From a virus (lineage: Duplodnaviria; Heunggongvirae; Uroviricota; Caudoviricetes): a stretch of DNA of 64,000 nt. Under the pieces are notes generated by a model. That model was not told where the DNA came from, did no database searches, and was given only the letters and a program-made list of their open reading frames with translations. The position numbers and the translations under genes are program-made. Below, in pieces: positions 1,541 through 7,594 of the stretch (positions are counted from its first letter, which is position 1; each line of letters opens with the position of its first letter). The stretch lies in the IMG/VR virus record IMGVR_UViG_2897358383_000002, one strand, 5' to 3'.

Positions 1541-3103
1541 ATGAAAATGACAAGTATTCAACAACGTGCAGAGCTTCATCGCCAGATCTGGCAAATTGCT
1601 AACGATGTCAGGGGTTCAGTCGATGGATGGGATTTTAAGCAGTACGTTTTGGGCGCGCTTTTTTACCGTTTTATCAGCGAAAATTTTTCCAGCTATATTG
1701 AAGCCGGTGATGACAGTATCTGTTATGCGAAACTGGATGACAGCGTAATTACTGATGACATTAAAGACGATGCCATCAAAACCAAAGGTTACTTCATCTA
1801 CCCCAGTCAGCTTTTCTGCAACGTAGCGGCGAAAGCAAATACCAATGACAGACTGAATGCGGATTTAAACAGCATCTTCGTTGCTATCGAAAGTTCTGCT
1901 TACGGTTATCCTTCAGAAGCTGACATCAAAGGTTTGTTTGCTGATTTCGATACAACCAGTAACCGCCTGGGGAATACCGTTAAGGATAAAAATGCCCGCC
2001 TGGCTGCGGTTCTGAAAGGGGTTGAAGGGTTAAAACTTGGTGACTTCCACGAACATCAGATTGACCTGTTCGGTGACGCCTATGAGTTCCTGATTTCTAA
2101 CTATGCGGCGAATGCCGGTAAGTCAGGCGGCGAGTTCTTTACACCGCAGCACGTCTCTAAGCTGATTGCACAACTGGCTATGCACGGGCAGACCCACGTT
2201 AACAAAATCTACGACCCGGCAGCAGGCTCCGGTTCGCTGTTGTTGCAGGCTAAAAAACAGTTTGATGACCATATCATCGAAGAAGGTTTTTTTGGTCAGG
2301 AAATCAACCATACGACCTATAACCTGGCGCGTATGAACATGTTTTTGCACAACATCAACTACGACAAGTTTGATATCAAGCTGGGTAATACACTGACTGA
2401 GCCGCACTTCAGAGATGAAAAACCGTTTGATGCCATCGTTTCTAACCCGCCGTATTCGGTGAAATGGATTGGCAGCGATGACCCGACGCTGATTAACGAT
2501 GAACGTTTTGCCCCGGCTGGCGTTCTGGCCCCCAAATCCAAAGCTGACTTTGCGTTTGTATTACATGCGCTGAACTATCTTTCGGCCAAAGGTCGCGCTG
2601 CGATTGTCTGCTTCCCAGGCATTTTTTACCGTGGCGGCGCGGAGCAGAAAATCCGTCAGTATCTGGTCGATAATAACTATGTCGAAACCGTGATTTCACT
2701 GGCTCCGAACCTGTTCTTTGGCACCACCATTGCCGTAAACATTCTGGTTCTGTCTAAACATAAAACGGATACCAAAGTTCAGTTTATTGACGCCAGCGAA
2801 CTGTTCAAAAAAGAGACTAACAACAACATCCTGACCGATGCCCATATCGAAAAAATTATGCAGGTATTTGCCAGCAAGGAAGATGTTGCTCATCTGGCGA
2901 AATCTGTTGCGTTTGAGACTGTTGTCGCGAATGACTATAACCTGTCGGTGAGCAGCTATGTGGAAGCGAAAGATACTCGCGAAATTATCGATATCGCTGA
3001 GCTGAATGCTGAGCTGAAAACCACGGTCAGCAAAATCGACCAGTTGCGCAAAGATATTGATGCGATTGTGGCTGAAATTGAAGGCTGCGAGGTGCAGAAA
3101 TGA
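1541..3103 (+). CDS. hsdM: Type I restriction-modification system N6-adenine methyltransferase subunit HsdM
   Basis: 520 aa; AdoMet motif [10 protein letters not shown] and catalytic NPPY ([12 protein letters not shown]); stop overlaps hsdS start. Confidence 0.9.
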
Positions 3104-4356
3104 GCGAGATGAGTTATCTGGAAAAATTGCTGGATGGGGTTGAGGTTGAGTGGAAGACTCTCGGAGAAGTCGCAAAATATGTACGTGGTTTAATTTATAG
3201 CAAATCGAGTGAAAGCGCGGATGGTCAAGGCTATAAAGTGCTTCGCGCTAACAATATCACGCTGTCTAATAATTGTTTAAATTTAAATGATGTCAAGGTG
3301 GTGAGGTTCGACACCAAAGTAAAGAGTTCGCAAAAGCTATATAAGAACGACATTCTAATTAGCGCAGCAAGTGGTAGCCGTGAACATGTCGGTAAAGTTG
3401 CTTACATAGAATCTGATATTGACTACTACTTTGGCGGATTTATGGGGGTCGTCAGATGCGATGAAAAATTAAATCCACGTTATTTATTTCACGTTTTAAC
3501 AAGTGATATTTTCCAAAAATATCTTGATGAAATGTTGAATAGCTCAACCATTAACAACTTGAACTCAGCCGTAATGGGAAGATTCAAAATCCCATTACCC
3601 TGCCCAGATACCCCGGAAAAATCCCTTGCCATCCAGTCTGAAATCGTTCGGATTCTGGATAAATTTACTGCACTTACCGCTGAGCTTACCGCTGAGCTTA
3701 CCGCTGAGCTTACCATGCGTAAAAAACAGTACAACTACTATCGCGACCAGTTGTTGAGTTTTAAAGAGGGTGAGGTTGAGTGGAAGGCATTGGATGATGT
3801 TTTTGACATTGTTGCAGGCGGCGATGCACCAAAAGATGCCTTATCCGAATTTGAGACCGAGGAATTCAGCATCCCCGTTTTATCAAACGGTATAGGTAAT
3901 AAATCACTATATGGATGGACTGACAGAGCCAAGATTGAGAAACCGAGTCTCACCATATCTGCAAGAGGTACTATTGGATGGACTAGCTATAGAAGTAGAC
4001 CATTCTTTCCGATAGTGCGACTGCTGGTCTTGACGCCAAAAATTAAATTAAACTTGAAGTACGCTTATTACTTCATGAAAACCATTGAGAATAATTACAA
4101 AATCCCTGAGGCAGGCATACCCCAGCTAACTAAACCGATGCTCAAAGACATTAAAATCCCCTTCCCATGCCCCGGTAATCCGGAGGAATCTTATAACGAA
4201 CAAGCCAGAATCGCAGCGACTCTCGACAAATTTGACGTCTTAACAAATTCGATTACCGAAGGTCTTCCGCGTGAAATCGAGTTGCGCCAGAAACAATACG
4301 AGTACTATCGTGATTTACTGTTCAGTTTCCCAAAACCCAAAACTGTCAGTAATTAA
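3100..4356 (+). CDS. hsdS: Type I R-M specificity subunit HsdS (Type IC-like, TAEL repeats in central conserved region)
   Basis: 418 aa; two target-recognition-domain halves separated by [12 protein letters not shown] and ending with a second conserved region ([10 protein letters not shown]); overlaps hsdM stop. Confidence 0.85.
3673..3714 (+). repeat. 12-bp tandem repeat (cttaccgctgag) x3.5 encoding (LTAE)3 in the HsdS central region
   Basis: Direct read: cttaccgctgag repeated at 3673, 3685, 3697 plus a partial unit to 3714. Confidence 0.9.
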
Positions 4357-4477: not shown

Positions 4478-7400
4478 ATGACTCATCAAACACACACCAT
4501 TGCTGAATCCAATAACTTTATCGTCCTTGATAAGTACATCAAAGCTGAGCAAACAAGCGACAGCTACCAGAGCGAATCGGACCTGGAACGTGAACTGATT
4601 CAGGACCTGCGGAATCAGGGTTATGAATTTATTTCCGTAAAATCACAGTCGGCAATGCTGTCTAATGTTCGGGAACAGCTTCAGAGCCTCAATGGTGTGA
4701 TGTTTAATGACAGCGAGTGGCGGCGCTTCACGGAGCAGTATCTGGACAACCCCAGCGATGGTATTCTGGATAAAACCCGTAAAATCCATATCGACTATAT
4801 CTGCGACTTTATTTTTGACGACGGGCGACTTGAGAACATCTATTTGATAGATAAAAAGAATCTCATGCGCAATAAGGTGCAGATTATCCAGCAGTTTGAA
4901 CAGACGGGTTCTCATGCTAACCGTTATGACGTCACGATCCTGGTTAATGGTTTACCGCTGGTGCAAATCGAACTAAAAAAACGCGGGGTGGCGATTCGTG
5001 AGGCTTTCAACCAGATACATCGTTACAGTAAAGAGAGTTTTAACAGCGAAAATTCCCTGTTTAAGTATCTGCAACTGTTTGTCATTTCTAACGGCACCGA
5101 TACCCGTTATTTTGCCAACACAACAAAGCGCGATAAAAACAGTTTTGACTTCACCATGAATTGGGCGAAATCAGACAACACGCTGATTAAAGACCTCAAA
5201 GACTTTACCGCTACCTTTTTCCAGAAACATACTCTGCTGAATGTTCTGGTGAACTACAGCGTTTTTGACAGTAGTCAGACGCTACTGGTGATGCGACCGT
5301 ACCAGATTGCCGCCACCGAACGAATCTTATGGAAAATCAACAGCTCCTATAAAGCGAAAAACTGGTCTAACCCCGAAAGCGGTGGCTTTATCTGGCACAC
5401 TACCGGTTCTGGTAAAACACTGACCAGCTTTAAAGCCGCGCGTCTGGCAACAGAACTGGACTTTATTGATAAAGTCTTCTTCGTGGTCGACAGGAAAGAC
5501 CTCGATTACCAGACCATGAAGGAATATCAGCGTTTTTCGCCAGACAGCGTCAACGGCTCGGAAAATACCGCAGGCCTTAAACGAAATCTGGATAAGGACG
5601 ATAACAAAATTATCGTCACTACTATTCAGAAACTCAATAACCTGATGAAAGCAGAAAGCGACCTGTCTGTATATAATCAGCAAGTGGTGTTTATATTTGA
5701 TGAATGCCACCGCAGCCAGTTTGGAGAAGCGCAGAAAAACCTGAAGAAGAAATTCAAACGCTATTATCAGTTTGGTTTTACCGGCACACCTATTTTCCCG
5801 GAAAACGCCTTAGGCTCAGAAACGACCGCCAGCGTATTTGGTCGTGAATTGCATTCGTATGTAATTACCGATGCGATTCGTGATGAAAAAGTGCTCAAAT
5901 TCAAGGTGGACTACAACGATGTGCGGCCACAGTTTAAGTCTTTAGAGACAGAAACTGACGAGAAAAAACTAAGTGCGGCTGAAAATCAGCAGGCGTTTCT
6001 TCATCCCATGCGTATACAGGAAATTACGCAATATATTCTGAATAACTTCCGCCAGAAGACCCACCGTACTTTCCCAGGTTCCAAAGGCTTTAATGCTATG
6101 TTGGCAGTGAGCAGCGTGGATGCTGCAAAAGCCTATTACGCGGCGTTTAAACGGTTACAAGAGGAAGCCGCTAATAAATCTGCAACTTATAAACCGCTGC
6201 GTGTTGCGACAATCTTCTCCTTTGCCGCTAATGAAGAACAAAATGCCATTGGTGAAATTTCCGATGAAACTTTTGATACCAGCGCAATGGACAGCAGTGC
6301 TAAAGAGTTTCTTGACGCTGCAATTCGTGAGTATAACAGCTATTTTAAAACTAACTTCAGCACCGACGGTAACGGTTTTCAGAACTACTATCGCGATTTA
6401 GCCCAACGGGTTAAAAATCAGGATATCGATCTGTTAATTGTCGTGGGGATGTTTTTAACTGGCTTCGATGCTCCAACATTGAACACGCTATTCGTCGATA
6501 AAAACCTGCGTTTTCACGGCTTGATGCAGGCATTTTCCCGCACCAACCGTATTTATGATGCAACTAAAACCTTCGGTAATATCGTCACTTTCCGGGATCT
6601 GGAACGCTCAACTATTGATGCCATAACGCTGTTTGGTGACAAAAACACCAAAAATGTGGTTTTAGAAAAGAGTTATGCAGAGTATATGGAAGGCTTTACT
6701 GATGCTGCCACTGGTGAAGCTAAGCGCGGCTTTATGGCAGTAGTTTCAGAACTGGAACAACGGTTCCCTGACCCTGCCAGTATTGAAAGTGAAAAAGAGA
6801 AGAAAGACTTCGTTAAACTGTTTGGTGAATACCTGCGTGCCGAGAACATCCTGCAAAACTATGATGAATTTGCCACGCTGAAAGCCCTGCAACAAATCGA
6901 TCTTAGCGATCCTGTTGCGGTAGAAAAATTCAAAGAAGAACATTATGTGGATGATGAAAAGTTCGCTGAATTGCAAACGATTCGTCTCCCTGCTGAACGC
7001 AAGATTCAGGATTATCGTTCTGCCTATAACGATATTCGTGACTGGCAGCGCCGCGAGAAAGAAGCTGATAAAAAAGAAAAATCAACCACTGACTGGGATG
7101 ACGTGGTTTTTGAGGTCGATTTGCTGAAGTCTCAGGAAATAAACCTGGATTATATCCTTGGACTGATTTTCGAACACAACAGACAAAATAAAGGCAAGGG
7201 CGAAATGATCGAAGAGGTCAAACGCTTAATTCGTTCAAGCCTGGGGAACCGGGCGAAAGAGGGCCTGGTGGTCGATTTTATTCAGCAAACGAACCTGGAT
7301 GATTTACCAGACAAAGCCAGTATCATTGAGGCATTCTTTACGTTTGCTCAACGCGAACAGCAACGTGAAGCAGAAGCATTGATAAAAGAAGAAAATCTCA

Positions 7401-7594
7401 ATGAAGATGCAGCAAAACGCTATATTCGCACGTCTTTAAAACGCGAATACGCCACCGAAAATGGCACAGAATTAAACGAAACATTACCAAAACTTAGTCC
7501 GTTGAATCCGCAATATAAAACGAAAAAACAGGCAGTTTTCCAGAAAATCGTCTCGTTTATTGAGAAGTTTAAAGGCGTAGGCGGAAAAATATAG
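4478..7594 (+). CDS. hsdR: Type I R-M restriction endonuclease/translocase subunit HsdR
   Basis: 1038 aa; Walker A TGSGKT, DEAD-like FDECHR, N-terminal nuclease-like region; length fits Type IC HsdR. Confidence 0.9.

Follow-up and report, generated by a model that had tools for sequence, protein, structure and literature searches.

Introduction

The archetypal Type IC restriction-modification (R-M) systems were discovered on conjugative plasmids (PMC3874165). Those closest to the locus described here are EcoR124I and EcoR124II, from plasmids R124 and R124/3, together with EcoDXXI from plasmid pDXX1 and EcoprrI from the chromosomal prr locus. The locus itself is an hsdM-hsdS-hsdR operon at positions 1541-7594 of a 64,000-nucleotide (nt) stretch of virus DNA (Caudoviricetes; IMG/VR record IMGVR_UViG_2897358383_000002), the whole of which is called the window below. 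A preliminary description, made from the sequence, had read it as a complete Type IC-like operon carried as defence cargo by a relative of phage P1. Overall, it is very probably a functional-looking Type IC operon of the EcoR124 family, forming an exchangeable cassette in a known hypervariable region of a P1-like phage-plasmid.

Membership of the Type IC family is established by experiment from subunit complementation among family members and from restriction alleviation that is independent of ClpXP (PMC12707154). In the specificity subunit HsdS, two copies of the TAEL repeat give a spacer of six nucleotides (N6) in EcoR124I, and three copies give N7 in EcoR124II, EcoDXXI, and EcoprrI (PMC3874165). 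Among P1-like phage-plasmids, the segment from pmgT to humD counts as hypervariable region 8 (PMC9603915), and flanking P1 DNA is attributed to Type IC hsd loci in the title of Tyndall et al. (1997). The record of reference P1 (NC_005856) contains miscellaneous features to the same effect: its positions 87969-88647 (doc-phd) are annotated as sharing 98% identity with the upstream DNA of the EcoDXXI hsd locus, and 84263-84482 as sharing 96% with the DNA downstream of EcoDXXI hsd and 98% with that downstream of hsdR on R124/3.

Operon structure and family assignment

In the list of open reading frames (ORFs), hsdM, hsdS, and hsdR are three intact ORFs on the plus strand, exactly where they had first been reported (Table 1). 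The start of hsdS overlaps the stop of hsdM by 4 nt (ATGA), and 121 nt (4357-4477) separate hsdS from hsdR. This intergenic region contains no ORF and hence no prrC-like gene, so that the prrC of the EcoprrI type has no counterpart between hsdS and hsdR. HsdM matches the family model TIGR00497 with 652.7 bits (cut-off 242.75) and contains the N6_Mtase and HsdM_N domains; HsdR matches TIGR00348 with 757.5 bits (cut-off 284.55) and contains HSDR_N, SWI2_SNF2, T1R_D3-like, and EcoR124_C domains; and HsdS has two Methylase_S domains. The functional motifs are also intact. HsdM carries the S-adenosylmethionine-binding motif DPAAGSG at residue 225 and the catalytic motif NPPY at residue 302, while HsdR carries a PD-(D/E)xK nuclease motif (D151, E165-x-K167) with QxxxY at 179-183 and the superfamily 2 motor motifs GSGKT (310), DECH (408), TGTP (435), and QAFSR (684). 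With three separate subunit genes, all far above the cut-offs of their family models, and with these motifs in place, the operon is, as far as its genes tell, a complete Type I R-M system.

Table 1. Features of the hsd cassette and its borders, in window positions.
Feature	Position	Strand	Description
doc	763-1143	-	Toxin gene; TIGR01550 DOC_P1 (133.4 bits), Pfam Fic; P1 backbone, left neighbour
phd	1143-1364	-	Antitoxin gene; TIGR01552, PF02604; P1 backbone
Pphd	~1396-1424 (equivalent)		Promoter just upstream of phd, from P1 annotation
hsd cassette	1441-7669		6,229 bp; no blastn match to P1 between the flanks
hsdM	1541-3103	+	520 amino acids (aa); N6-adenine methyltransferase subunit
hsdS	3100-4356	+	418 aa; specificity subunit
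N-terminal target recognition domain (TRD)	3154-3579	+	HsdS aa 19-160
TAEL repeat	3673-3714	+	Perfect 12-bp repeat, 3.5 copies, encoding TAEL three times; central conserved region
C-terminal TRD	3775-4185	+	HsdS aa 226-362
Candidate hsdR promoter	4384-4413	+	TTAACA-18-TATTTT; consensus scan alone
hsdR	4478-7594	+	1038 aa; translocase/endonuclease subunit
Hairpin	7607-7640		9-bp stem, inside the cassette just after the hsdR stop; read from the sequence, no T-tail on either strand, no terminator call
28-codon hydrophobic ORF	7677-7760	-	Translation MNTAFKIIMTAIYFWLFSITFGGIVAHG; P1 backbone at the right breakpoint
C1 operator	7844-7860	-	Equivalent of P1 OpmgT/Op88; one mismatch to ATTGCTCTAATAAATTT; overlaps the PpmgT promoters
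pap	7860-8366	-	HAD_PNKP domain; homologue of P1 pap, right neighbour, followed by pmgS

The subunits were compared with all chains in the PDB, where 2w00 (HsdR) and 7bst (M protein) served as the EcoR124 references. HsdM aligns end to end with the EcoR124II M protein (7bst_D) at 515 of 520 identical residues, that is, with five mismatches, and the M protein of the Type IA system EcoKI gives just 68 bits. HsdR aligns without gaps to the EcoR124I subunit (2w00_A; residues 1-1038 to 1-1038, 2255 bits) at about 97% identity, a value taken from the 26 mismatches counted in the first ~968 residues shown of the alignment. Such near-identity stands in, at the sequence level, for the complementation of subunits and the cross-reaction of antibodies. 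EcoR124_C (PF12008), the C-terminal domain of EcoR124-type HsdR, spans residues 728-1031 (241.9 bits). HsdS is nearly identical to the EcoR124 S chain in its N-terminal 18 residues, its central conserved region, and its C-terminal region, and it keeps the TAEL repeats of the family within this framework; neither of its TRDs is matched. The gene order, as read from the ORFs and their strands, is that shared by EcoR124I and EcoR124II, and Type IA and IB operons are ordered hsdR-hsdM-hsdS. Since the order, the near-identity of HsdM and HsdR to their EcoR124 counterparts, the EcoR124_C domain, and the TAEL repeats all point to one family, the operon is placed in Type IC (EcoR124) by every sequence-level criterion. 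Therefore, the completeness and the Type IC affiliation proposed at the outset are both borne out, and the closest matches are to EcoR124 instead of Type IA, IB, or ID enzymes.

Specificity subunit and predicted target

The part of the operon that departs from EcoR124 is the specificity of HsdS. The EcoR124 TRDs, which recognise GAA and RTCG, are unrelated to both TRDs of the window HsdS, and its recognition sequence is therefore expected to differ from that of EcoR124. The TAEL copies match each other at 100% by tandem repeat analysis, and translation gives three of them, as in EcoR124II, compared with two in the EcoR124 HsdS chain in the PDB. By analogy with the characterised three-copy enzymes, a bipartite target with a non-specific spacer of 7 nt is predicted, not the 6-nt spacer of EcoR124I.

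Each module of this HsdS is also found elsewhere. The two TRDs of allele P0001 (E. coli, 414 aa) are 100% identical to those of the window, but this allele has two TAEL copies. P0014, present on 235 contigs, shares the N-terminal TRD (142/142) and differs in the C-terminal TRD (46/137), whereas P0056 shares the C-terminal TRD (137/137), differs in the N-terminal TRD (32/142), and has two TAEL copies. Judged from these alignments, the window allele is a mosaic that fits the textbook pattern of Type IC TRD exchange and TAEL copy-number change. One source labels P0056 as 'EcoprrI subunit S', but the label was not used to infer RTGC as a half-site: P0056 has two TAEL copies and EcoprrI is reported to have three, and because of this conflict the name is probably a homology label. 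The half-sites were likewise not assignable from relatives of the TRDs. There is a small possibility that the TRD combination with three TAEL copies specifies a recognition sequence not yet catalogued.

Cassette boundaries in the P1 backbone

The operon lies between the phd-doc module on the left and the C1 operator and pap on the right, in agreement with its first placement between phd-doc and C1-controlled genes. By blastn, two blocks of the window match P1. The left one (1-1440; 97.6% identity) spans pdcB, pdcA, doc, phd, and the promoter of phd, and the right one (7670-10500; 98.4% identity) has Op88/PpmgT, pap, pmgS, pmgR, and further genes. Between these flanks, the cassette stands in place of 3,487 bp of P1 that carry humD, lxr, hot, upfO, upfN, upfM, pmgV, pmgU, and pmgT, and reference P1, which has its Type III res/mod system elsewhere, has no hsd operon at this locus. 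For the nine replaced genes, no DNA or protein match was found in the rest of the window, nor in the initial 32.5 kb of a near-identical plasmid. Comparison of the flanks sets the boundaries at 1440/1441 and 7669/7670, which correspond to P1 positions 87970 and 84482. Both are gene-precise: one directly follows the humD stop codon, and 5 nt lie between the other and the ATG of pmgT.

Insertion by a transposon or an integrase was considered and rejected. No flanking repeats were found at the cassette ends, where the longest direct repeat (7 nt) and the longest inverted repeat (6 nt) are at chance level, and there is no mobility gene among the ORFs of the cassette. Therefore, the cassette appears to have been exchanged as a module by recombination in conserved flanks, not by transposition.

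Prevalence and origin

The ends of the P1 features annotated for the EcoDXXI and R124/3 flanks are the two breakpoints of the window. The operon thus shares the P1 surroundings of the classical Type IC loci: EcoDXXI has the same flanks, with phd-doc upstream and the Op88/pap region downstream, and R124/3 passes into P1 backbone after hsdR at an identical point. The operon is real, but its arrangement has been known since 1997, and the system itself has been characterised very well.

This arrangement is also frequent. With a 140-nt probe and a coverage of at least 80%, the phd|hsd junction was found in 704 of 5,426 complete E. coli genomes (about one in eight), nearly always on plasmids, and an equivalent probe for the phd|humD junction of reference P1 was found in 464. 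The hsd arrangement is the commoner of the two at this site in complete E. coli genomes. In the same set, the framework of Type IC hsdS occurs in 1,302 genomes, on chromosomes and plasmids, and the exact HsdS allele of the window in 24. In PLSDB, 80% or more of window 1-9800 is present in 216 plasmids, and three of them, including p50579417_1 (NZ_CP033882.1), are 100% identical across it. Over the same region, Escherichia phage vB_EcoM-673R5 (ON470615.2) is 99.9% identical in DNA and phi456 is 97% identical. Both cassette junctions of p50579417_1, vB_EcoM-673R5, and phi456 are as in the window, with nothing of substance different. Many PLSDB relatives (the 96% and 91% coverage classes) differ from the window just in one or both TRDs, and some relatives differ in TAEL copy number, as in P0001. 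Overall, only the HsdS allele, in its TRD combination and TAEL count, is particular to the window element.

The view of a defence module that travels with the phage-plasmid is supported. The accompanying statement, that Type IC systems are usually found on conjugative plasmids, holds for where the archetypes were discovered but understates the link with P1, since the classical EcoDXXI and R124/3 loci have the same P1 flanks and complete E. coli genomes carry hsd at the P1 site more often than the reference-P1 genes. Another possible origin, implied by the preliminary description, is that this phage-plasmid acquired the operon recently, as a rare cargo event, from a conjugative plasmid of the R124 or pDXX1 type. 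The discovery of the archetypal systems on such plasmids is in keeping with it, as are the 381 of 1,661 PLSDB matches that are predicted to be conjugative and the guanine-plus-cytosine content of the cassette, which at 43.8% is below the 47.5% of the rest of the window. However, the phd|hsd junction outnumbers the reference-P1 junction and is nearly always on plasmids; 1,007 of the PLSDB matches are non-mobilizable, as expected of P1-like elements; and the classical loci have P1 flanks with identical breakpoints, according to the P1 record and the title of the 1997 paper. A recent acquisition is therefore very unlikely. Together, the prevalence of the junction, the non-mobilizable majority, and the P1 flanks of the classical loci indicate one old event in a P1 context, after which fragments reached conjugative plasmids, and not the reverse.

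Proposed function

If the operon works as EcoR124I does biochemically, its methyltransferase would consist of two HsdM and one HsdS and would methylate, at N6, one adenine in each of the two half-sites of a bipartite target; with two HsdR added, it would become the R2M2S1 endonuclease. The two TRDs of HsdS would set the half-sites and the number of TAEL copies the spacer. On an unmethylated target, R2M2S1 would stay bound, reel in DNA by ATP-driven translocation, and cut far off, where translocation stalls. In Type IC systems, the cleavage-incompetent assembly intermediate R1M2S1 lets the system establish itself safely in a new host (PMC12707154). In the plasmid-prophage state, the operon would be expressed from its own promoters, so that the lysogen would be protected from unmodified incoming DNA and P1-like progeny DNA would be marked with the methylation pattern of the cassette. 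Homologous recombination most likely spreads and diversifies the cassette, acting in its conserved P1 flanks and in the conserved hsd framework, where TRDs are swapped and TAEL copies change by slippage or unequal crossing-over.

Several points weigh against a functional operon of this kind or leave its target less defined. Expression, methylation, and restriction are attributed to it from sequence identity. No sigma-70-like site above the scan threshold was found upstream of hsdM (1441-1540). Type IC systems have two promoters, one before hsdM and a separate one before hsdR, and matches like the candidate found at the latter place are no commoner in that region than in shuffled sequence. The N-terminal TRD resembles that of EcoKI, which recognises AAC, weakly (about one-third identical by eye; 48.7 bits for the N-terminal TRD stretch, 62 for the whole chain), and for the C-terminal TRD the solved structures include no characterised protein that is close. 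In addition, the record of vB_EcoM-673R5 (ON470615.2, positions 3045-8996), where the match is 10 nt shorter than in the window, annotates hsdM and hsdR as several fragments (HsdR1 and HsdR2); either a loss of activity in some copies of the cassette or insertion or deletion errors in that record may explain this.

The fragmented hsdR of that record would also suit an operon kept mainly for modification, or as an addiction-type module beside phd-doc, with restriction inactive or strongly alleviated and with selection acting on methylation or post-segregational killing. The position of the operon next to an addiction module is in line with such a role. However, Type I systems in general make poor addiction modules. 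The Type IC R1M2S intermediate, which does not cleave and permits efficient establishment in naive hosts (PMC12707154), could be read in favour of it as well. On the other hand, hsdR in the window is a full-length ORF of 1038 codons with all nuclease and motor motifs intact, and the exact HsdR protein sequence occurs on 441 contigs, which suggests that the restriction subunit is under purifying selection. Maintenance for modification or addiction therefore appears extremely unlikely, and a complete Type IC operon, with restriction included, is the reading preferred here.

C1 control

Matches to the C1 operator consensus number nine in the window, where 0.24 are expected by chance. One of them is the operator at the right border of the cassette, and P1 annotates OpmgT and the promoters P1pmgT/P2pmgT at the homologous position; the other eight lie at 9936-10001, 13609-13625, 23460-23487 (an overlapping pair), 26993-27009, 42445-42461, and 44116-44132. 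These predicted operators confirm P1-type immunity wiring across the window. The consensus scan found none inside the cassette, and expression of the operon from its own promoters is therefore expected in the lysogen.

In P1, the C1-repressed PpmgT/Op88 drives pmgT, pmgU, and pmgV. By homology with the P1 annotation, the same C1-repressed promoters in the window aim at the 3' end of hsdR. Between the PpmgT promoters and this gene, no terminator-like site was found on the minus strand, and one on the plus strand (7788-7811) would halt read-through from hsdR before pap. The small, strongly hydrophobic ORF (MNTAFKIIMTAIYFWLFSITFGGIVAHG) lies between the PpmgT promoters and the breakpoint, with its stop codon 7 nt from the junction. 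Its region is common to P1, P7, and SJ46; the ORF is unannotated in the P1 reference, and a 'membrane protein' is among the features under the SJ46 match. One could propose that PpmgT, which is kept in all hsd-bearing P1-like elements, is now antisense to hsdR and that, if it fired on induction, convergent transcription could lower HsdR in lytic growth. This proposal, drawn solely from the geometry of the locus, is unlikely; if true, it would tie restriction to the lysogenic state as a form of phage-encoded restriction alleviation.

Neighbouring genes and related elements

The immediate right neighbour of the cassette, pap, encodes a phosphatase domain of the polynucleotide-kinase type. EcoprrI is linked to the anticodon nuclease PrrC, which phage T4 counters with a polynucleotide kinase; the adjacency of pap to a Type IC operon may be a coincidence.

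Plasmid p50579417_1 contains a RelA/SpoT-domain gene (20147-21274) where P1 has its Type III res/mod genes, a gene annotated as 'anti-phage deoxyguanosine triphosphatase' (4716-6071), and an IS200/TnpB element (7959-10794). From this gene content, it appears that the phage-plasmid lineage carries defence-type cargo at several variable sites, and it may have no R-M system besides the Type IC one. Statements on genes outside the window, namely the absence of res/mod and the RelA/SpoT gene, hold for the close relatives and not certainly for the source element. Klebsiella phage vB_KpnS_p4727 (PQ492289.1, positions 4119-10052), apparently of another phage group, contains an hsd cassette that matches window 1547-7586 at 82% identity; therefore, Type IC cassettes also travel on phage elements other than P1. 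In window 39001-64000, the closest plasmids match in one piece up to ~18 kb and then in many pieces around the tail-fibre genes. Such a break-up towards the end of the window fits the tail-fibre segment of P1-like elements, which is invertible or variable.

Conclusion

The family of this operon, its mechanism, the variation of its TRDs and TAEL repeats, and its place between phd-doc and pap are all already in the literature, and an identical locus is present in public records. The result is useful as annotation, in that it places a Type IC system in hypervariable region 8 of this element. At this site, reference P1 represents the minority arrangement. For the biology of the phage-plasmid, the cassette will shape which incoming DNA its lysogen accepts, as well as the methylation of the DNA that it packages or transduces.

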